Numbered from the stretch's first letter, positions 1 to 13,541 are shown. The stretch: 64,000 nt of DNA from an uncultured Coprobacillus sp. (GCA_964389905.1 CAYMGD010000002.1:2843-66842), one strand, 5' to 3'. The notes: generated by a model from the letters alone, not told the origin. A program made the numbers and translations.

Positions 1-2818
1 CAGCTGATGTTTTGCCTGTTAAAATAAAGTGTTTATATTTTTTTTCGTTAAACTTTGGAGTTAACAAATCAAAAGCTGATGTAAACTGACTAAATATTAT
101 TACTTTGTGATCATTTGCGAGATATTCTTCTAATAAATCCATCAACAAATCAAACTTCGCTGAAGAGCCCTTATAATTCTCTACAAATAATTCTGGATGA
201 ACACAAATTTGTCTTAATCTTGTTAAACAAGACAAAATCTCAATTTTTGATGAATTAGGATTAACAAGTATTTCTCTAGTTTCTCTTAGTTTAGCTTCAT
301 ATATCAATCTTTGATCACTTTCCATTGAAGCAATTTGAATTGTTTCAATCTTATCAGGCAAATCTTTTAAAACTTCTTTTTTTGTTCTTCGCAAAACGAA
401 AGGTGATATTTTTCTTATTAATTGTTCTACTACTTCTTCAGCATTACCACTAACTACTGCTTCTTCATATTTTGATCTGAATGAACTATAATCACCCAAA
501 TATTCTGGCATTAAGAAGTCAAATATACTCCATAAGTCTACTACACTATTTTCAATTGGAGTACCCGTTAAAACAAATCTGTGAGATGATTTAATCTTCT
601 TCACTGATTTTGCTTTTAAAGTATTATGATTCTTTATACTTTGAGCTTCATCTAAAACTAAGAAATTAAATTTCTTACTCTTATATAGATCTATATCATT
701 TCTTAAACTATCATATGACGAAACATAAATGGTCTTTTCTTTGTTTTTAATTCCTTCAATAATTTGCTTACGCTCATTTACGCCGCCTATTACATTAATG
801 ACTTGTATATCTTTAGCCCATAACGAAAACTCATTTTTCCAATTATAACATAAACTCTTAGGACAAACAATTAAACTTGGCGAATTTGTTTTGTCAGACA
901 TAATAACAGATATTACCTCAAGAGTTTTTCCCAGCCCCATATCATCAGCTAATACTCCGCAGAAATTATGTTTTATCAGTGTTTTCATCCACTTATAGGC
1001 ATCCACCTGATATCCTCTCATTATTTCTTTTAGGCTTTCAGGGACAGCAACCTTTAATTCTTTAAAGTTTACAATTTCTTGAATTAGATTTTTTAAACTT
1101 TCATCTAATGTGTAATCTACAATGTCAATATCGTCTACCATTTTTAGGGATTGATATAATGGAACACTTTGACTTTCGTTCAATTTCTTTGCATCAAGTT
1201 TAAAAGTTTCTATTGTATTAAGAAGTTTATTAGCATCTTTTTCGTCTACTTCAATTATTGTATCTTTGCTTAGTTTAATAAATCGCATCTTTTTCTTTAA
1301 ATTAGTAATAATGCGATATAATTCTTCATCAGTAAAACCACTTTCCTCAAAACAAATATCTAACATCCCTGTTTTGTATGACATATGCGCTGAAACAGGT
1401 TTCATTTTACTTGTTTTTACTTCTGTTAGATTTTCTGACAAATAAATATCTGATAATTTTTTTAGTTCGCTTAAATCAGTTCGCAAGAAATTATATACTA
1501 AATTAGGTTCTTCGATACAATTATTTTTAAATCCTAAATTAGCGATATAAGATAAATACCTATTTATCTTGTATGGATATTTGTTTAACTTTTCCAAAGA
1601 GATTTCCTTGCTTCCCTTCTTATATTTACTATCCAATAAAAGTATTCCATCTTTATAGTCAAAATATGAAGATATTTGATATTCTTCAGTTTTTATATCA
1701 TTTTTTATACTTTCGTCTATTTCAATTTCTTCAGCAAAACGTGGATAAATTGATTTTTCAAATACATCTTTGATATATGCAAAAGAAATACCTTTTTGTT
1801 CAGTTATTGTATTAATTAGTTTACGATATGCAGGGTCTTTATTCTCCAGTTCAAATATTTCTTTCCCACAGATAACAAAATCTTTGGAATAACCTTCAAT
1901 TAATCCTTTTACACCTTTCAAGTTTAAAATATGATTTTTATCTAAATATAGCTTAGGAGATAACATTTTATCAGAAACAAAATATTTACAATCGTCTGAA
2001 AAGTTTTCAACATATATAAAACGATTCTTGAATAGTTCCAAAAGCCTTTCTGCTTTAATAGGTGCTAAATCAACTTCTTTTTTGGAATTGTATTCTGAAA
2101 AACTAAAAGCTGCTAAAAATGTAACTATTTCACGTGAAAAATCATCAAAAGCTTCTAATGAATGAACAAAAGAAAACTTCTTGCCATAAGAAACTAAACT
2201 ATTCTCACGAACTGCAGAAACAAAATCACGTACATTTTGTACTACATATTTCTTTTCATCACCGACTCTAATTGAAAGATTAACTGAATCTTCTTGATAT
2301 TTTCGATGTTCAAAATTTATTCGACAATCAATTGACATTTTTTTGTTTTGTACAAGTGTGTCATATTTATCGATATCACCAAGAAAAGATTTCAATTTTT
2401 CCATGCTTTCTTTTCGCTTAACTTTATATTCCTCAATGCGAATCTCTTCTTCAATTTTTTCAAATTTTTTATTTAATTCTTCAACATTTTGTTCTATTTC
2501 TAAACTCTCATAATAGCGAACAAGAGCAAAGAAATGCTTGCATGTCTTAGAATAACGATCAGCTAAACATTTATGATCTAATATATTATCATTTTCATCA
2601 ACGATTATTGTCATAAATGGATTTTCATTTATTGAATATTTCAAAATGAAACTATATCTTAATACTCGTTGTAACTCATCTCCTCTTTTATAGATAAGGC
2701 AATCGTACTCGATACGAAATAACTCACCAAATCCTTCTTCAAAAAGAGTTCGACCATTTTCTTCACAATTACTTACATGATAATTTATAGGAATCTTATT
2801 ATATTCTAATTGGTACAT
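1..2818 (-). CDS. SNF2-family (Swi2/Snf2; YwqA/RapA-like) DNA-dependent ATPase, about 940 N-terminal codons; the 3' end runs off the window
   Basis: Missing from the ORF track only because no stop codon lies inside the window. Hand translation of the minus strand from ATG 2818 is open to base 1 (MYQLEYNKIPINY...). The GGTGGA RBS at 2823-2828 overlaps the stop of the upstream gene. The translation contains a SWIM-like CKHFFAL element near the N-terminus and SNF2 motifs LADDMGLGKT (I, encoded near 930-960), VLDEAQSIKN (II) and LTGTPIEN (III). Confidence 0.85.
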   Translation of the reverse strand, partial: MYQLEYNKIPINYHVSNCEENGRTLFEEGFGELFRIEYDCLIYKRGDELQRVLRYSFILKYSINENPFMTIIVDENDNILDHKCLADRYSKTCKHFFALVRYYESLEIEQNVEELNKKFEKIEEEIRIEEYKVKRKESMEKLKSFLGDIDKYDTLVQNKKMSIDCRINFEHRKYQEDSVNLSIRVGDEKKYVVQNVRDFVSAVRENSLVSYGKKFSFVHSLEAFDDFSREIVTFLAAFSFSEYNSKKEVDLAPIKAERLLELFKNRFIYVENFSDDCKYFVSDKMLSPKLYLDKNHILNLKGVKGLIEGYSKDFVICGKEIFELENKDPAYRKLINTITEQKGISFAYIKDVFEKSIYPRFAEEIEIDESIKNDIKTEEYQISSYFDYKDGILLLDSKYKKGSKEISLEKLNKYPYKINRYLSYIANLGFKNNCIEEPNLVYNFLRTDLSELKKLSDIYLSENLTEVKTSKMKPVSAHMSYKTGMLDICFEESGFTDEELYRIITNLKKKMRFIKLSKDTIIEVDEKDANKLLNTIETFKLDAKKLNESQSVPLYQSLKMVDDIDIVDYTLDESLKNLIQEIVNFKELKVAVPESLKEIMRGYQVDAYKWMKTLIKHNFCGVLADDMGLGKTLEVISVIMSDKTNSPSLIVCPKSLCYNWKNEFSLWAKDIQVINVIGGVNERKQIIEGIKNKEKTIYVSSYDSLRNDIDLYKSKKFNFLVLDEAQSIKNHNTLKAKSVKKIKSSHRFVLTGTPIENSVVDLWSIFDFLMPEYLGDYSSFRSKYEEAVVSGNAEEVVEQLIRKISPFVLRRTKKEVLKDLPDKIETIQIASMESDQRLIYEAKLRETREILVNPNSSKIEILSCLTRLRQICVHPELFVENYKGSSAKFDLLMDLLEEYLANDHKVIIFSQFTSAFDLLTPKFNEKKYKHFILTGKTSA

Positions 2819-2827
2819 TTTTTCCAC

Positions 2828-4261
2828 CTATATATTTAATTCTGATTCAAAACATTCGTATTTATATCTATCATCATAAGGTATATATTCTTCAAAGATA
2901 TACTTCAAAAACATCTCAACATAATATCCACCAAATTTGTAAGAATTTATCATTCGTAAATACTTTATGACATCTTTTACGCTTCTACTTCTTACATAAG
3001 TGTAAATTTTTTTTTCAAAATAAGGAATAAAAGCTTCTTTGTAATTTTCAAACAAAGTACGTGAGTATTTCATAACCTCTGAAAAGCCCATACAAGAAGC
3101 TTCATCCAATAGGTTTTCATAATCAGCTATCGCCTCATATATCTCACATCTTTCGGTTATACTATAATTACTTATTAATGCGTTAAGCATAGATTTATCC
3201 TTAATTAAATTCTTTTTATATAAAATCTTTAATATATTTAAAGATGGTCCTGATTTTATTATTTCATTAGCAGTTTTCTCATTAGGTTTTGCATTAATTA
3301 AAGCTTCATAATACAATTCTCTAATTTCCTCATCTTTATCATTATGATAAATATTTATGATATCATCATACATTTTATTTTTCATTTGAACATTCATATA
3401 TTTCATTTTTATTCTTTTTATATGAATATTACATAAACAAATATCTTTAAACTCTTCATTTTTCTCATGCAAAAGCAAATAATCTAATTTTGCTATTAAT
3501 GCTACTTCGTAGCCTTCTTCAAGTTTTAATTCTTTAACTATATCAATAAGGAAGTTTAAAACGTCAATGTAATCTTCTTCTGCACTATTATTAGCAAGTC
3601 CATTTATTACTTTTATTAATACGTCTTTTGAAGCAATATAAGAAAAACCATTTATATTATAATCCCAAGAAAAATTTCTCATAGAATTTATTAAATCAAA
3701 TATTTTTTTATAATAATTAAGCTTTAATGGTTTATTATTAATTGATGCCAACATTACAATAGCTTTATAATACAAATCAGATTCGGACTTTTGACTAATT
3801 ATTTTACTAAGCATCTTTTCAGCATTACATTCGAAATCATCAGCCAAAGAATCTATTAAAAGATAGCGTGGTCCAATAATTCGTGATAAATAATTATATA
3901 ATTCTTCAGCATTCATATTAACTATATCATAGCTCATATCATCAACGCTACACAATTCATCTAATTTTTCACAATTTTCTTTCAAGTATAGAATTGATGG
4001 AATATAATGCTCACAAACTCCCCTATCTCGGCAGGAACATTCAAATTTTAAAATATTATTTTGTAAAAAGAGTATAGAGTATTCATTTTTATCAAAAACA
4101 ACAATAATTTTTTCTTTTTTAGGTGAGAAAAAATATTTAATATGATTTGCTTTGTAATAATTATGTCCTCTTGCAATATCCCTTATATAGAACTTGTTTT
4201 CAAGATTAAATCTACTAATTTTAGTTGCTAAGTTTGTTTTATATTCCATTTTATCCCTCAC
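2828..4261 (-). CDS. SWIM zinc-finger domain protein, otherwise uncharacterised
   Basis: 477-aa ORF. CSCRDRGVCEH fits the CxCx(n)CxH SWIM signature. The rest is K/N/I/Y-rich helical sequence with no motif I recognise. There is a 9-nt gap to the SNF2 gene, so the two are probably translationally coupled. Confidence 0.7.
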   Translation of the reverse strand: MRDKMEYKTNLATKISRFNLENKFYIRDIARGHNYYKANHIKYFFSPKKEKIIVVFDKNEYSILFLQNNILKFECSCRDRGVCEHYIPSILYLKENCEKLDELCSVDDMSYDIVNMNAEELYNYLSRIIGPRYLLIDSLADDFECNAEKMLSKIISQKSESDLYYKAIVMLASINNKPLKLNYYKKIFDLINSMRNFSWDYNINGFSYIASKDVLIKVINGLANNSAEEDYIDVLNFLIDIVKELKLEEGYEVALIAKLDYLLLHEKNEEFKDICLCNIHIKRIKMKYMNVQMKNKMYDDIINIYHNDKDEEIRELYYEALINAKPNEKTANEIIKSGPSLNILKILYKKNLIKDKSMLNALISNYSITERCEIYEAIADYENLLDEASCMGFSEVMKYSRTLFENYKEAFIPYFEKKIYTYVRSRSVKDVIKYLRMINSYKFGGYYVEMFLKYIFEEYIPYDDRYKYECFESELNI

Positions 4262-4319
4262 ATTGTCTTATAATTATACTATATAAATTAGTAAATAACA
4301 ATGATTTTTTTTGGGGTTT

Positions 4320-5378
4320 TTAATTATATGTTATTTTCTTTACCATTTGAAAAAGGTATTTAGCATTCTTAATTTTGTAATATTTTATAAATTCATTATA
4401 TCTTTCATTTATTTTTTCAAACATCACCTTTTTTGTCATTTTTGAAACAAAAAAGAAATATTTTTTCATTTCATCAGTGATTTTAAGACAATCACTTTTG
4501 ATATATGTATGATTTTTAATTTGGTAATAAAACAATGAATGTTTTAAAATTGCTTTTATTTTCCTTTCACAAACTACCAACTTCAAAGAATTAACAATAT
4601 CTTCTAGCTTAAATGTATTGCGATAACTTTCGCATATCATATGTACGAGATATATTTCTTCTTTATTAGCATATTCTTTTGCATATGTTGAGACAAATCC
4701 AAAATATTTTTCTTGATATTTTGGCTTTAAACAGAACATATCTTCATTTTTGAAAAAGTATACATACATTATATTTTGAGCCTTTAAGTGTTCATTATAA
4801 ATTTGATAATACCTTTTTTCAAATTCATTAATGTTTTGAAATCCTTGTGAGAATTCTTTATTGTAAAGAAAACATATTTTATATTCGACACTTACATATC
4901 CTTTTGCATAAAAGTGTTGATATTTCTCATACTCTTTATTTATTCTATTGATTATTATGTCCTCACTTACTTCCATGTTGGTGCTACTAATATTATCTTT
5001 TAATGTACATATCAACTTTTTATATTGCTCAAGTGTAAGATATTTATTATAACTTTTTACAATATATTCATCTGATGGTATATCTTTCGAAGTATAAATA
5101 TCATACATTTCATTGTATTTTACACCAAAAATATGATTTTTCTTTACAAGATACTCTATAACTAAATAGTATTTAGGAAAAAATTTCTTTAAATCTTCTT
5201 CAGTAAAAAAACCATCTCTAATTGATAGAATATACTTGATGATGTATCTTCCATCATATGAATCAAAAAAGATTTGAAATGCGCTTAATACTTCTTCATA
5301 TCCTTTCTTTATTTTCTTATATGTCGCATCTATAATTTTTGTAATTATATTATTTTTTGTATTCTTTATCTTTAACAT
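4320..5378 (-). CDS. hypothetical protein (352 aa), member of the SNF2/SWIM operon
   Basis: Long uninterrupted ORF, co-directional and closely spaced with its neighbours. No recognisable motif. Confidence 0.6.
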   Translation of the reverse strand: MLKIKNTKNNIITKIIDATYKKIKKGYEEVLSAFQIFFDSYDGRYIIKYILSIRDGFFTEEDLKKFFPKYYLVIEYLVKKNHIFGVKYNEMYDIYTSKDIPSDEYIVKSYNKYLTLEQYKKLICTLKDNISSTNMEVSEDIIINRINKEYEKYQHFYAKGYVSVEYKICFLYNKEFSQGFQNINEFEKRYYQIYNEHLKAQNIMYVYFFKNEDMFCLKPKYQEKYFGFVSTYAKEYANKEEIYLVHMICESYRNTFKLEDIVNSLKLVVCERKIKAILKHSLFYYQIKNHTYIKSDCLKITDEMKKYFFFVSKMTKKVMFEKINERYNEFIKYYKIKNAKYLFQMVKKITYN

Positions 5379-5470
5379 AAAAATAATGTTATTATTCTTC
5401 TCAACATGATCATTTATATATTTTTCAATTATGAAATCTGATACACTATTATTTTCATTTAAAAGTGGTA

Positions 5471-6247
5471 TTAGTCCATATAATTCTGAATATTCTTTAT
5501 TATATTTTTTTCATTGAGATATCTTTTTAATTCTCCGATTCTTTTTATATTATATTTGTTTAAATAATTTTTATAGTTATCATTTAACCAAACATTTAAA
5601 TATAAAGAATTATTATTGTTGTTTATCATTTTAATAAAATCATTATATTCTATAAACATATTAAAATTTATTTTTCCAATAATATCTAAGAATATTAAAT
5701 CCTTATATATATTTTTGTTTAACCTAAATACTTTTATAATATTTTTATATATGTCTTTCGTTACATCTTCATTTTCAGATAACTTCTTTAAATAAGATTT
5801 AAGTATTCTATCATATGTATGTTTACCCTCTTTAATTGTTGTAATGTTCTCCCATATACTTGTAATTCTCTCTTCAAAAAGAGATGTTTCGTTTTCTTCA
5901 TCTCCGAATAAATCGTCAATGCATTTTTCGTGTTTTTCTGTTATTGTGTTTTCCCTTCTAAAAGCAATATATTTTGTTATTAAATAAGATTTTTCTGGAT
6001 TGTTTCTTATTATTCTTATCACATCACTAATTGTAAAATAATTATCGTCTAATATCATATTATCATTAATATAATTTATTACTACTTCTTCATCTTTAAA
6101 TATTTCTTTAACTTTCATTTCTTTGATTCCTTCCTTAATATCTACTATTATAATTTGTTTACCAAAAATAATCAATTTAACATAATCACAAAATGTTACA
6201 TTTTTTATAAATTTTCTGGGCTTTTTCTTTTTATTTCTGGTTATCAA
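5471..6247 (-). CDS. hypothetical protein with a possible RNA-polymerase alpha-CTD-like helix-hairpin-helix at the C-terminus
   Basis: The ORF-track start at 6247 has no RBS. The internal ATG at 6118 (MKVKEIF...) is preceded by AAGGAAGGA, so 5471..6118 is the more likely CDS. The C-terminal LNDNYKNYLNKYNIKRIGELKRYL loosely fits the L..R..N.L...gI.tigdL pattern of RpoA CTD; this is tentative. Confidence 0.55.
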   Translation of the reverse strand: MITRNKKKKPRKFIKNVTFCDYVKLIIFGKQIIIVDIKEGIKEMKVKEIFKDEEVVINYINDNMILDDNYFTISDVIRIIRNNPEKSYLITKYIAFRRENTITEKHEKCIDDLFGDEENETSLFEERITSIWENITTIKEGKHTYDRILKSYLKKLSENEDVTKDIYKNIIKVFRLNKNIYKDLIFLDIIGKINFNMFIEYNDFIKMINNNNNSLYLNVWLNDNYKNYLNKYNIKRIGELKRYLNEKNIIKNIQNYMD

Positions 6248-6307
6248 GTTTTTTTAAGAAAAAAACACCCTTTTTTTGATTTAAAAGAATGTTTTTTGAA
6301 AATGTTT

Positions 6308-8608
6308 TCAATCATTGAATATTATTTTATCATTGTCATATGTTGCATAATTACTTAATAATCCATTAGGTACTGTACTTAACAATTTCTTATCTCTTAT
6401 CAGTTTTTGTACTTCATATTTGTTTGCTTCTTTTTCATGAAAGTTTTCACGAACAACATTATATATTAATTCTTGATATGATTTAAGTTCTTTTGTAATA
6501 GCATATTTAGACGTTAAATAGTTATTAATGCCTAAAGAATTAACAACATAATATATCTTTGAATAATTTTCAATATAAGATGATAAAGAATAACTATTCA
6601 TATAACATTTTTCGCCATTAACATAATAAAATAACCCTTTAGAAAGTTTTTCCAAATCATTTTCTAATGCATAATCATTATTTTGGAAATACTCTCTAAA
6701 TCTTTTCTTGATTTGATATTTATTAATATCATCAATTGATATATTCTCAAGTAATGCCATTCTATCAACAGCCATTCTAAATACATTTATTCTATTATTT
6801 TTCACTTGATAAATCAAAGAAAAATCTTTAGTTGAGGAAATTAAGCCTATTTCTTTTTGAGCTTTTTCAATATCTATTATTCCATCGTTTTTAGCAAAAT
6901 AATCTAATATAATTTTTTTGAAAGTTATAGCATAATTATACTTTTTGTCTTGAATATATGGAACATAGAAATTATATATATCAGAATAATAGTATCGGCA
7001 AATGCCATATAGCATTATAGCATCTTTTATGTTCATACGATTCCACTCATCTTGATATTTATTATATAATGTTTCTCTATGAATATATAGATTAATCATT
7101 TCATATTCTAATTTAAACTTTATACGATTTAAATTATCTTCTGATATTTTTATTTTTGTTGCGATTGTATATTTATTATTGACATTGATTATTGAGATAT
7201 CATCTCGAACTATTGATTGAACAGAAGCTAATGAAATGTCTAATTTCTCCACAAGTTCGTTAATATCACACATGTCGTGTTTGTCAATGTAACTATGTAC
7301 TAGTTCATTTAAAGTATATTCTTTAAGCTCTAATTTTCGAACGCCCATCTTTTTGAAGTAATACTCATCTTGTAAATAATATTTTAATAGTCCATATAGT
7401 TTATATTTATCAGTAATTTCTGTTTCTTTTAGACTTTCAAATAATAACTTATATAAATCATCTAATAACATATAGCTATTATTTTCAAATACACGTTTAA
7501 ATTCACTAATAATATTTTGCAGTTTTACTTCTTTAATGTGAACATTATCAATGTGTATTCGTTTTTGTTTTCCCCAAATAATTAGTTCTGGATTAAGTTC
7601 ATCAATTTTGGCATTTGCGGAAAGGAGTTTAAATTCATAATCATACTTTTCTTGCATTTTTTTAGAAAGTTGTTTTAACCCTTCATCATCAATTATTATT
7701 CCTTTAGGATAATTTTCTTTGATAAAATTTGACATTATTGAATTTGTTGAGAAGGTTCCAGGCTTTAAAGCAAGATTACCCTTGAAAATGTATTTTTGGT
7801 TGTTGAGAAAGTTTTTGTATATTGTAAATGTAAAATCAAGAACATTATGTTTATATATTAAAGTATCATTAATTTTACTATATCTCTCAAAGTAATTAAA
7901 GTAGTCATTTAAATCTATTAAATTGATGATTGTATTTAGTGTTCCTTTTTTTTCAATATTTATAAAAGATGAGAATTCTTCTGAATAAATTGCAAATAAA
8001 TATTTATTTTTTTTGAGAAGAATTAGATTAATAACTTCAATGACTTGTTTGTCATTTATGAAATTAAATATATCTTCAATATTATAAAATAATATATTTT
8101 TATACACCCCATTCTTGAATCCTATATTTAGATATGTTTCAAGAAATATTAGTATTTCGTTAGATGAATTATTCTCTATTTGTCTAATTCGTTCACGACT
8201 GAGGTTTTTCGATGAACCTATTTTTTCGAGTTTCTCACCTCTTGCACGTCGTATTAAGACATCATATCCAGGATTTTCTTTTATGATTCTTTCAAGGTTA
8301 TTTTTTAAATATTCATATCCTTTACAGATAACAAGAATATATTTTTCAAATAAAGTTTGGTAATTCTTTTTAATTTTATTTGATAACTCATCAATTTGAT
8401 AATATTTTAAATCTTTTAAATATTTCAACTTCTTTTCTATTGGCAGAAATATAGTTGGAATAGGTTCTTTTTCAAATATTTCATCAACAAAACTTATATT
8501 TCTACTATTAATGTTTTTTGTAACATCTTCTTCTTTTTCGATAAGCAAATCAAATAAATTGGAAATATTTTTATCATTCATAAAACTATTTTTGTCTCCT
8601 ATTATCAT
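6308..8608 (-). CDS. large (about 760 aa) uncharacterised protein with a sigma-70 region-4.2-like HTH
   Basis: DVLIRRARGEKLEKIGSSKNLSRERIRQIENN closely matches the sigma-70 region 4 consensus (..TLeEIG...gvSRERVRQIE..). No region 2 is seen. ATG 8608 overlaps the predicted -10 box. ATG 8581 (MNDKNISN...), downstream of AGGAGA at 8595-8600, is the more likely start. Confidence 0.7.
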   Translation of the reverse strand: MIIGDKNSFMNDKNISNLFDLLIEKEEDVTKNINSRNISFVDEIFEKEPIPTIFLPIEKKLKYLKDLKYYQIDELSNKIKKNYQTLFEKYILVICKGYEYLKNNLERIIKENPGYDVLIRRARGEKLEKIGSSKNLSRERIRQIENNSSNEILIFLETYLNIGFKNGVYKNILFYNIEDIFNFINDKQVIEVINLILLKKNKYLFAIYSEEFSSFINIEKKGTLNTIINLIDLNDYFNYFERYSKINDTLIYKHNVLDFTFTIYKNFLNNQKYIFKGNLALKPGTFSTNSIMSNFIKENYPKGIIIDDEGLKQLSKKMQEKYDYEFKLLSANAKIDELNPELIIWGKQKRIHIDNVHIKEVKLQNIISEFKRVFENNSYMLLDDLYKLLFESLKETEITDKYKLYGLLKYYLQDEYYFKKMGVRKLELKEYTLNELVHSYIDKHDMCDINELVEKLDISLASVQSIVRDDISIINVNNKYTIATKIKISEDNLNRIKFKLEYEMINLYIHRETLYNKYQDEWNRMNIKDAIMLYGICRYYYSDIYNFYVPYIQDKKYNYAITFKKIILDYFAKNDGIIDIEKAQKEIGLISSTKDFSLIYQVKNNRINVFRMAVDRMALLENISIDDINKYQIKKRFREYFQNNDYALENDLEKLSKGLFYYVNGEKCYMNSYSLSSYIENYSKIYYVVNSLGINNYLTSKYAITKELKSYQELIYNVVRENFHEKEANKYEVQKLIRDKKLLSTVPNGLLSNYATYDNDKIIFND

Positions 8609-8635
8609 TATATCACTTTTTTTGTTTTAATGCAA
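8607..8635 (-). promoter_or_regulatory. sigma-A-type promoter for the five-gene SNF2/SWIM operon
   Basis: On the minus strand: TTGCAT (8630-8635), a 17-nt spacer, then TATAAT (8607-8612). It lies directly after the frr terminator. Confidence 0.5.
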
Positions 8636-8644
8636 ATTTCGAGT

Positions 8645-8677
8645 ATTTAAAAACTGTAAACATATCGTCTACAGTTT
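8645..8677 (-). terminator. rho-independent terminator after frr
   Basis: The 8-bp stem AAACTGTA / TACAGTTT (8651-8658 and 8670-8677) runs into TTTTTAAAT on the minus strand. Confidence 0.55.
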
Positions 8678-8686
8678 AATAAAATA

Positions 8687-9244
8687 TTATATTTCCATAA
8701 CTTGTTTTTCTTTGGCTTTAACTAATTCTTCAGCTTTAGCAATATATTTATCAGTTGTTTTTTGAACTTCATCATTGTAATTAGATAGTTCATCTTCTGA
8801 TATTTCATGGTTCTTTTCTAATTTCTTTAAAGCTTCATTGCAATCTCTACGAATGTTTCTACAAGCAACTTTTGCATCTTCGCCTAATTTCTTGACATCT
8901 TTGCATAATTCTTTACGTCTTGCTTCTGTTAAAGCAGGGAAATTAATTCTTATAACAACACCATCGCTTTGAGGTACCAAGTTTAAATCTGCTAATTGAA
9001 TTGCTTTTTCGACTTCTCGTAATTGTGATTTATCGAATGGTTTAATTACGATTTGTTGTGCTTCAGGAACACTTATTGTTGACATTTGGTTAATTGGAGT
9101 TGGAACACCATAATAATTAACTCTAACATCATTAAGTACTGCAGGGTTAGCTCTACCTGTACGAATTAGACCTAATTCTTTTTTCAAAGACTCAATAGTC
9201 TTTTCCATTTTTTCTTCGCCTGTTAAAATAATTGTTTCTGGCAT
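8687..9244 (-). CDS. frr: ribosome recycling factor
   Basis: 185 aa with RRF-like sequence along its full length (LIRTGRANPAVLNDV...). Sits in the conserved rpsB-tsf-pyrH-frr order. Confidence 0.95.
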   Translation of the reverse strand: MPETIILTGEEKMEKTIESLKKELGLIRTGRANPAVLNDVRVNYYGVPTPINQMSTISVPEAQQIVIKPFDKSQLREVEKAIQLADLNLVPQSDGVVIRINFPALTEARRKELCKDVKKLGEDAKVACRNIRRDCNEALKKLEKNHEISEDELSNYNDEVQKTTDKYIAKAEELVKAKEKQVMEI

Positions 9245-12620: not shown

Positions 12621-13541
12621 TTATTCATCGCTTGCATGAGGATGAAATTTTTGATATTCATTAATTAATTGTTCTTTAGAAATATGAGTATAAATTTGAG
12701 TTGTAGAAAGGTTAACATGTCCTAAAAGACTTTGAACACTTCTTAGATCTGCTCCTCCGTTTAAAAGATGGGTTGCAAAGCTATGCCTAATCATATGGGG
12801 ATGCACCTTGAGCTTTTCTGATGTATCATTTGTGATTTCATCTAATACAACTCTTACACCTCTTGTTGTGAGAGGACCTCCACGATGATTTAAGAATAGT
12901 TTCGTAGTTCTTTCCTTCTTTTCTTTCATTAAAAGTTCACTACGAGAAAATGATATATAGTCTTGAAGAGCACTTTTAAGAGAATCAATCATTGGTACTA
13001 TTCTTTCCTTTTTTCCTTTTCCGTATACTTTTATATAATTTAGTGAATAATCAATATCTGTAATATCTAAATTACAAAGTTCACTAACACGCATCCCAGT
13101 ATCATAAAGCATTTCAAGAATACAATAATTCCTTCTCCCAATTACTGTCTTACAATTGATAGAATCAAACATTGCTTCTATCTCATCAGCATACAACTGT
13201 TTAGGAAGTAATTTACTTTTTTTAGGACTATTTACTTCATTGAAAATATTATATGTAACATATCCTTCTCTAACCATAAAACGATATAGACCTCGTAAAC
13301 TCGATAGTTTACGGGAAATACTAGTTGATTTCATACCTTTTTTCGATAAATCTAATATGAAGAATCTTGCAATATTAGTTGTACAATTAACCATTCCATT
13401 GTATTTTTTTTGTTTCAAAAACTCAATAAACTCATCTATATCATTCATATAATTAAGAACTGTATATTGTGAGTATCCTCTTTCAACTTCTAAATAATCT
13501 TTATATGCACATACTATTTCATAATCAGTCATTAAACTCAC
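12621..13541 (-). CDS. xerC: tyrosine recombinase XerC/CodV-like
   Basis: 306 aa. Motifs GMRVSELCNL, HMIRHSFATHLL and LGHVNLSTTQIYTH give the R-H-R-Y catalytic set. It sits directly after trmFO, as in the Firmicute trmFO-codV arrangement. Confidence 0.85.
   Translation of the reverse strand: MSLMTDYEIVCAYKDYLEVERGYSQYTVLNYMNDIDEFIEFLKQKKYNGMVNCTTNIARFFILDLSKKGMKSTSISRKLSSLRGLYRFMVREGYVTYNIFNEVNSPKKSKLLPKQLYADEIEAMFDSINCKTVIGRRNYCILEMLYDTGMRVSELCNLDITDIDYSLNYIKVYGKGKKERIVPMIDSLKSALQDYISFSRSELLMKEKKERTTKLFLNHRGGPLTTRGVRVVLDEITNDTSEKLKVHPHMIRHSFATHLLNGGADLRSVQSLLGHVNLSTTQIYTHISKEQLINEYQKFHPHASDE

Follow-up and report, generated by a model that had tools for sequence, protein, structure and literature searches.

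Organization of the locus

The analysed window is a 64,000-nt stretch of DNA from an uncultured Coprobacillus sp. (GCA_964389905.1 CAYMGD010000002.1:2843-66842). At its start lies a cassette encoding proteins with sigma-like and winged-helix features, a SWIM zinc-finger protein and an SNF2 ATPase, preceded by rpsB, tsf, pyrH and frr (frr 8687-9244) on the same, minus strand. The original prediction, made from the sequence alone, described a self-contained operon of five genes, represented by minus-strand open reading frames (ORFs) at 6308-8608, 5471-6247, 4320-5378, 2828-4261 and, leaving the window, 1-2818. Four genes are in fact present, the second and third ORFs being parts of one gene (gene 2/3) divided by a 1-nt frameshift in an A7 run; the numbers 4 and 5 are retained for the remaining two. 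The safest statement is that the locus contains two tight pairs, gene 1 with gene 2/3 (pair A) and gene 4 with gene 5 (pair B). Its G+C content is 20-25%, against 28-35% in the flanks. The features, from upstream to downstream, are:

8649..8677, minus strand: frr intrinsic terminator (RNA hairpin of -11.6 kcal/mol, z -5.4, followed by U5)
8607..8635, minus strand: P1, promoter-like site TTGCAT-17-TGnTATAAT with extended -10 TG, 5' of gene 1 (consensus match only)
6308..8581, minus strand: gene 1, 757 aa, sigma-70 region-4.2-like helix-turn-helix (HTH) followed by about nine predicted tandem winged-helix domains; identical to NCBI protein P0001
6259..6297, minus strand: terminator-like hairpin and U7 directly 3' of gene 1 (-11.6 kcal/mol, z -4.8)
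6147..6175, minus strand: P2, promoter-like site TTGATT-17-TATAAT, 5' of gene 2/3 (consensus match)
4320..6118, minus strand: gene 2/3, about 599 aa, interrupted by a frameshift; predicted helix-hairpin-helix (HhH) module, degenerate sigma-4-like HTH and winged-helix array
5505..5511, minus strand: A7 homopolymer, one base short, dividing gene 2/3 into the former genes 2 and 3
2828..4249, minus strand: gene 4, 473 aa, N-terminal SWIM finger CSCRDRGVCEH, then a predicted TPR-like alpha-solenoid
1..2818, minus strand: gene 5, 939 aa in the window (1050-1056 aa in relatives), degenerate SWIM, SNF2_assoc, SNF2 and Helicase_C

The hairpin originally proposed to close frr was recovered, having been missed by a consensus scan because its stem contains only 2 G-C pairs. 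The proposed promoter is also present at 8635-8607, and includes an extended -10 element, yet matches of this kind are not enriched in so AT-rich a region (84 observed against 79 expected from shuffles). The cassette cannot be read as one simple operon: gene 1 is followed by both a terminator and a promoter-like site. Hairpins occur at the equivalent post-gene-1 position in five relatives, differing in sequence and with two-sided changes at four pairs. Blocks of P2 (TTAAATTGA...TATAAT) are partly conserved across aligned relatives, and AAGGAAGGA, downstream of P2, is a ribosome-binding site. With the hairpin and P2 after it, gene 1 looks like a separate transcription unit from which some read-through may occur. 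The remaining three genes run in the same direction, and a consensus scan of the window detected no terminator between them.

The intergenic gaps, originally given as about 60, 92, 58 and 9 nt, hold in part. Since gene 2/3 starts at ATG 6118, the spacer between gene 1 and gene 2/3 is 189 nt rather than about 60; the 9 nt between genes 4 and 5 were found as described, and 58-70 nt precede gene 4.

Gene 1 and its wider family

The start of gene 1 is ATG 8581, as in the NCBI record and in all orthologues; the ATG at 8608, which opens the longer ORF, overlaps the -10 box of P1. Counted along the 766-aa ORF that opens at ATG 8608, the HTH lies at about residues 105-150. The gene 1 sequence alone reaches 15.9 bits with Sigma70_r4, under the Pfam cut-off of 24.1. 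A profile of the gene-1 family (17 members), compared with the PDB, retrieved only region 4 of sigma-A/RpoD (E 4e-4, residues ~94-143), and the LSRERIRQIE motif forms part of a block, G-x-KLE-x-IG...LSRERIRQIE, that is invariant throughout the gene-1 family alignment. Neither Sigma70_r2 nor Sigma70_r3 (Pfam) was matched in gene 1 or in 49 distant homologues, whereas Sigma70_r4 was found in 46 of these 49 at E <=1e-3, with all nine of those scanned individually exceeding the gathering cut-off. The original reading of gene 1 as carrying sigma region 4 and no region 2 is thus borne out and, lacking region 2, the protein is not a sigma factor.

The AlphaFold2 (AF2) model of gene 1 (predicted local distance difference test score, pLDDT, 87.7; predicted template-modelling score, pTM, 0.49) comprises the HTH followed by about nine helix-helix-helix-strand-strand modules. 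Foldseek matched this model to tandem winged-helix arrays, among them UFL1/DDRGK1 (3e-4), SelB WH1-4, Dcc1, ESCRT-II and Pol III C82.

A word-based search with gene 1 recovered only 17 close clusters, all at least 43% identical. An exhaustive profile search recovered 880 representatives at E <=1e-3 and 412 at E <=1e-10, with profile positions ~50-750 covered in hundreds of family proteins at E values down to 1e-45. The distant members are mostly 800-1250 aa long and carry the gene-1-like region at the C-terminus, preceded by 250-500 extra residues; in the branch closest to gene 1, three to four tandem HhH repeats lie ahead of the sigma-4 HTH. RNA_pol_A_CTD, the profile of the C-terminal domain of the RNA polymerase alpha subunit (alpha-CTD), was found in 17/49 distant homologues (best E 1.5e-25) and HHH_5 in 8/49. 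The family is named only generically. Some long members contain further N-terminal domains, such as DUF4145 (P0149) or BspA-type LRR_5 repeats (P0176), which could hint at sensors and are not decisive.

Gene 2/3, a frameshifted paralogue

Three-frame translation revealed that the frame of gene 2/3 resumes after a 1-nt shift within the A7 run. The addition of one A restores an ORF of 599 aa, which aligns colinearly, at 64% identity, with the 596-aa orthologue in L012, the closest relative; single ORFs of 596-656 aa are its equivalents in L012, L010, L008, L001 and L009. In all relatives examined, gene 2/3 is one ORF or an ORF interrupted solely by an assembly gap. The missing base may reflect either a genuine mutation or an assembly error in the homopolymer.

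Recurrent frameshifting of this gene was also considered, given that the reference scaffold of Coprobacillus sp. CAG:698 presents two ORFs as well, and was ruled out: an N-run inside the gene (L017 ~12900-13000) mimics a split there. One further relative of gene 2/3 (P0041) is incomplete, ending at a contig end, and is not a true split.

A word-based homologue search with gene 2/3 returned only two proteins. Profile-profile alignment (hhalign) against the distant family gave 98% probability (E 1.5e-13, 482 columns) over a span taking in the HhH module, a degenerate sigma-4 position and the winged-helix array; against the narrow gene-1 family the same comparison gave an uninformative 17%. The alpha-CTD-like HhH originally suspected at the end of the former gene 2 receives indirect support only. 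No direct match to RNA_pol_A_CTD (Pfam) was obtained for gene 1 or for any gene-2/3 orthologue, but the motif concerned, NIKRIGELKRYL, is placed by hhalign onto the HhH module of the distant family, where the 17 carriers of that domain are found.

On these alignments gene 2/3 is a degenerate paralogue within the superfamily of gene 1. Both genes, gene 1 by profile, AF2 array and Foldseek and gene 2/3 by hhalign, can be assigned to an unnamed sigma-4-HTH/alpha-CTD/winged-helix-array superfamily. The hhalign result and the domain counts among the 49 distant members therefore make the combination of sigma-4 and alpha-CTD real at the level of the family, and in the window two paralogues share it.

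Genes 4 and 5

The SWIM finger originally assigned to gene 4 is well founded: its motif, CxCx5CxH, is kept in every full-length orthologue, as well as in the N-terminal piece of a split copy (L009), and Pfam SWIM is matched in two orthologues (E 2e-4). Gene 4 accordingly has the CxCxnCxH pattern of SWIM zinc fingers, whereas that of gene 5 is degenerate. The AF2 model of gene 4 (pLDDT 70.5) contains low-confidence N-terminal beta strands, then helix, with residues 130-470 confidently helical. Its top Foldseek matches are TPR proteins, none significant (none <1e-3), and a word-based search returned only three proteins.

Gene 5 had been called an SNF2 ATPase with a SWIM remnant, and both parts of that description stand. 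Pfam detects SNF2_assoc (PF08455, E 5.2e-31, over the full profile, 1-373) and SNF2-rel_dom (PF00176, E 1.2e-66), followed by a Helicase_C domain that is truncated by the window end and complete in relatives. The first Cys of the SWIM motif has been lost in the window's lineage, in contrast to the canonical CSC...CKH in Listeria. With SNF2_assoc joined to SNF2-rel_dom/Helicase_C, gene 5 encodes a YwqA-like ATPase. The gap separating it from gene 4 is 4-15 nt wherever the pair exists.

Distant homologues of gene 1 in BREX type 4 and defence loci

In one locus (L015) a homologue of gene 1 (P0058) precedes PAPS_reduct, a 1400-aa protein, PglZ and BrxL, genes of a bacteriophage exclusion (BREX) system. 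A metagenome scan of this large BREX-linked branch (L015, L023-L071; e.g. L027 8255-20607) yielded 52 loci in 24 clusters. At 15 of the 17 distinct flanked loci the homologue is immediately succeeded on the same strand by an optional ORF of ~240 aa and then by ORFs of ~775, ~1400 and ~755 aa, which PADLOC identifies as BrxP (5e-247), BrxC/PglY (1e-107) and PglZ (4e-55). BrxP was found in 39 of the 40 metagenome loci with at least 2 kb of downstream sequence, and all loci with ~10 kb downstream carry BrxP, BrxC and PglZ, except L058 (BrxP only).

In the branch closest to gene 1, protein P0046 of Isachenkonia alkalipeptolytica (L022 442-9654) sits at the edge of a defence island that includes BrxL (E 0), a DpdF-like helicase and a GmrSD-like protein, with an integrase fragment adjoining; it is not immediately upstream of brxP.

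In the searchable text of two surveys (PMC12914056, PMC12839542), BREX type 4 is described with brxPCZL, DUF4007, an iSTAND fusion and a cysteine desulfurase, and a sigma-like or alpha-CTD gene goes unmentioned; the linkage of the sigma-like family to BREX type 4 appears to be unreported in that text. Literature searches found no description of a sigma-like BREX-4 gene or of a system combining SWIM, SNF2 and sigma-like proteins. For an uncharacterised family of ~880 representative clusters, these results provide a structure and a context, namely an almost unbroken association with BREX type 4 operons. Should the family prove to function in phosphorothioate-based BREX, it would represent an unrecognised recognition or regulatory subunit, and possibly a missing BREX-4 component.

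Distribution and evolution of the cassette

The cassette is confined to a small clade resembling Coprobacillus CAG:698. Five GTDB species have members of the narrow gene-1 family (Coprobacillus sp. CAG:698, 'uncultured Coprobacillus sp.' and 'Bacilli bacterium' metagenome-assembled genomes), as do gut metagenome contigs, and in all relatives found gene 1 comes straight after frr or nearly so. From upstream to downstream, the shared arrangement is rpsB-tsf-pyrH-frr, in some lineages a variable gene, gene 1, gene 2/3, again in some lineages an inserted variable gene, gene 4, gene 5, one or more HTH_3 genes and VTT/DedA. The original prediction took the position after frr as a sign of insertion. 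This was not demonstrated; the cassette occupies one and the same site after frr in every gene-1-bearing relative, and hence is an old possession of the clade, passed on vertically.

Variation is found around and within this fixed framework. The slot between frr and gene 1, empty in the window, is occupied elsewhere by a MatE transporter (L001 8516-9910), a GH3 glycosidase (L008 8419-9954) or an 879-aa ORF (L018 6787-9423), and looks like a small gene-turnover hotspot. Insertions between gene 2/3 and gene 4 are present in L001, L009 and L020, with MgtC in some lineages. The gene 4 of L009 (15426-16923) appears as two ORFs, 315 and 149 aa long, through either a disruption or an assembly error. 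In the most divergent lineage (L005/L006/L021) a gene 2/3 remnant of only ~300 aa persists, and a HAD hydrolase, a short-chain dehydrogenase, MgtC and a small membrane protein stand in place of genes 4 and 5 (L005 3326-7184, L021 12016-15861). The linkage of the upstream genes to the SWIM/SNF2 pair, on which the original prediction depended, therefore exists within one syntenic clade only, and is broken in L005/L021.

Amino-acid identities between the window and four relatives were as follows:

trmFO, xerC, rpsB, tsf, pyrH, frr: 75-96% (frr alone 85-96%)
dut: 58-67%, the lowest of the seven flanking genes
gene 1: 49-65%
gene 5: 49-66%
gene 4: 29-41%
gene 2/3: 29-37%

Distribution and identities together indicate that the cassette is fixed in place, at least partly non-essential and evolving several-fold faster than its surroundings.

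Comparison with known systems

As originally supposed, no described system of this composition was encountered: searches of PADLOC 2.0, NCBIfam 20, PHROGs and Pfam gave nothing significant for genes 1-4. The combination is undescribed in those libraries, each of its domains being known and gene 5 falling in a known family.

Pair A is tied to BREX type 4 through distant homologues. Members of the wider family (e.g. WP_160719364.1, Isachenkonia alkalipeptolytica), found in one large branch upstream of brxP, have, like gene 1, a Sigma70_r4 HTH and the same winged-helix array, and an alpha-CTD-type HhH module corresponding to the one predicted in gene 2/3. They are, however, single polypeptides of 800-1250 aa with one to four N-terminal HhH repeats, followed in the sampled branch by brxP-brxC-pglZ, whereas the window contains two shorter paralogues of low identity to them, a SWIM/SNF2 pair and no brx genes in the cassette. 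BrxP, BrxC, PglZ and BrxL are absent from the cassette ORFs (PADLOC, Pfam) and from the loci of the relatives, and the cassette is not a BREX type 4 system.

A Swi2/Snf2 motor encoded with DNA-binding or sensor partners in a multi-gene cassette is a feature shared with DISARM (DrmD), Zorya (ZorD), Dpd (DpdE), BREX type 3 (BrxHII) and BREX-related systems. The partners DrmA/B/C, ZorA/B/C, DpdA-K and PglX/PglZ are missing from the cassette, which does not belong to DISARM, Zorya or Dpd. The DpdE, ZorD and DrmD profiles of PADLOC match only the helicase core of gene 5 (residues ~490-939), and the corresponding NCBIfam scores (ZorD 185, DrmD 34, DpdE 35 bits) lie far below the cut-offs of 1500, 610 and 500. 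The best NCBIfam match of gene 5 is pilus_reg_Snf2, at 367 bits far under its cut-off of 1100. Gene 5 is not RapA/HepA either, with 21 bits against a cut-off of 576 (PRK04914) and an N-terminus of SWIM/SNF2_assoc rather than Tudor-like type.

MzaA of the MZA anti-phage system, a large defence-associated protein of the sigma-70 family, has a region-4.2 motif like that of gene 1. The matches are weak (NCBIfam E 0.069 for gene 1; PADLOC E 9e-4 for P0058) and cover only ~20 HTH residues; the MzaA motif is C-terminal, unlike that of gene 1, and no further Mza genes are present. The YwqA-like SNF2 proteins of Listeria and Lactobacillus are 27-29% identical to gene 5 over ~80% of its length. Gene 5 differs from them in lying 9 nt from a SWIM/TPR gene, in the loss of the first SWIM Cys and in evolving faster than its flanks.

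Possible function of the cassette

Sigma region 4 and the alpha-CTD contact polymerase and promoters. The analysis establishes which domains the proteins carry, that pair A is paralogous, how the locus is conserved in synteny, how fast it evolves and which genes surround distant homologues. On this basis we tentatively favour, at somewhat short of an even chance, the view that the cassette is a DNA-surveillance or defence-like module and not part of the core housekeeping complement. Pair A would supply two paralogous scaffold proteins, presumably nucleic-acid-binding and each joining an alpha-CTD-type HhH to a sigma-4 HTH and a long winged-helix array, that are trimmed offshoots of a large uncharacterised family; pair B would supply a putative SWIM/TPR adaptor and a YwqA-like SWIM-SNF2_assoc-SNF2 protein predicted to translocate on double-stranded DNA. 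The winged-helix-array proteins could bind DNA, or the sigma-4 and alpha-CTD look-alikes could engage RNA polymerase or polymerase-targeting factors. The site would thereby be marked, and the SNF2 motor, docked via the SWIM/TPR protein, might then translocate on DNA and strip or remodel protein-DNA complexes. DNA binding, coupling between the two pairs and an anti-phage role would all be expected of such a module. The defence role proposed in the original prediction is supported indirectly, through distant homologues that lie in BREX-4 loci and defence islands, and the function of the cassette itself is an inference. The window may show the same module joined to a different motor, a YwqA-like SNF2 with a SWIM/TPR partner; if so, it could help to explain what the widespread SWIM-SNF2_assoc-SNF2 proteins of Firmicutes do, a long-standing question. 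A more elaborate scheme, which we regard as improbable, would have proteins that mimic these two RNA polymerase surfaces, the ones that phages most often hijack, serve as decoy sensors or DNA-targeting subunits of immune systems, arming BREX type 4 in most bacteria, with a duplicated, trimmed pair rewired in this clade to SWIM/TPR and SNF2 proteins as a new defence system.

Several observations weigh against a defence module. PADLOC found no match for genes 1-4 and only generic helicase-core matches for gene 5; no nuclease or other effector domain was found in the cassette, and no modification enzyme was seen there (the rest of the window was not scanned). The chromosomal site is fixed clade-wide rather than patchy, and no relatives were found on plasmids (tblastn with P0046 and P0095) or on viral contigs (scan of the closest outgroup). 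As all co-occurrence of pairs A and B falls in one syntenic block, it reflects shared ancestry and does not constitute independent evidence. Others of these observations would be equally expected if the locus were two unrelated neighbouring modules sharing an inherited address, pair B performing a general YwqA-type job and pair A serving in nucleoid- or transcription-related DNA binding, or being left over, and decaying, from a BREX-4-like system since lost. Gene 1 is set apart from the remaining genes by a terminator and a promoter-like site; unrelated genes lie between gene 2/3 and gene 4 in L001, L009 and L020, that of L020 on the opposite strand; gene 1 is intact in the lineage (L005/L006/L021) that is without genes 4 and 5; SNF2 proteins number 0/94 among the neighbours of the BREX-4-linked homologues; and the YwqA-like SNF2 genes of Listeria and Lactobacillus are solitary, among housekeeping genes. 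We nevertheless consider two unrelated modules rather doubtful, given that in the window the three genes from gene 2/3 to gene 5 share one direction, with short gaps and no detected terminator between them, that both pairs evolve much faster than the flanks, and that the lineage without genes 4 and 5 is also the one in which gene 2/3 is cut down, which would fit co-dependence of gene 2/3 with pair B. Were the pairs unrelated, the locus would be a fast-evolving, lineage-specific one of modest interest.

A transcription-coupled housekeeping role would make gene 5 the YwqA/RapA-type SNF2 of the clade, recycling or removing stalled polymerase, with genes 1 and 2/3 docking on RNA polymerase or promoter DNA as lineage-specific accessories. 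The SNF2_assoc and SNF2 architecture of gene 5 is that of YwqA-like proteins, the sigma region 4 and alpha-CTD themes belong to modules that contact polymerase and promoters, and the position beside translation genes is fixed across the clade. B. subtilis YwqA is, moreover, listed among RNA-polymerase-interacting translocases (PMC7385302), a point that also counts against a defence module. Such a remodeller is unlikely all the same: evolution is very fast compared with the core neighbours, genes 4 and 5 are missing in one lineage, genes are frameshifted or split and low in G+C, the RapA score is negligible next to its cut-off, and the relatives of gene 1 at large associate with BREX-4 and defence islands instead of transcription genes. 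Decay of a non-functional locus, pseudogenising in this genome, could account for the frameshift, the low G+C and the rapid divergence, together with the split gene 4 of L009 and the loss of genes 4 and 5 in L005/L021. It appears very unlikely, because other copies are intact long ORFs with motifs invariant across 41-92% identity, the A7 indel could stem from assembly, and in the CAG:698 scaffold an N-run gap accounts for the apparent split. A DNA-surveillance or defence-like module thus remains the tentatively preferred reading.

Genes downstream of the cassette

In all relatives, the SNF2-less lineage included, an HTH_3 (Xre-type) gene and then VTT/DedA follow the cassette. Some lineages carry a divergent pair of HTH_3 genes at this place (L001 19915-21206, with equivalents in L002, L003, L005/L006 and L009), and a single copy is found in L008, L010 and L011.

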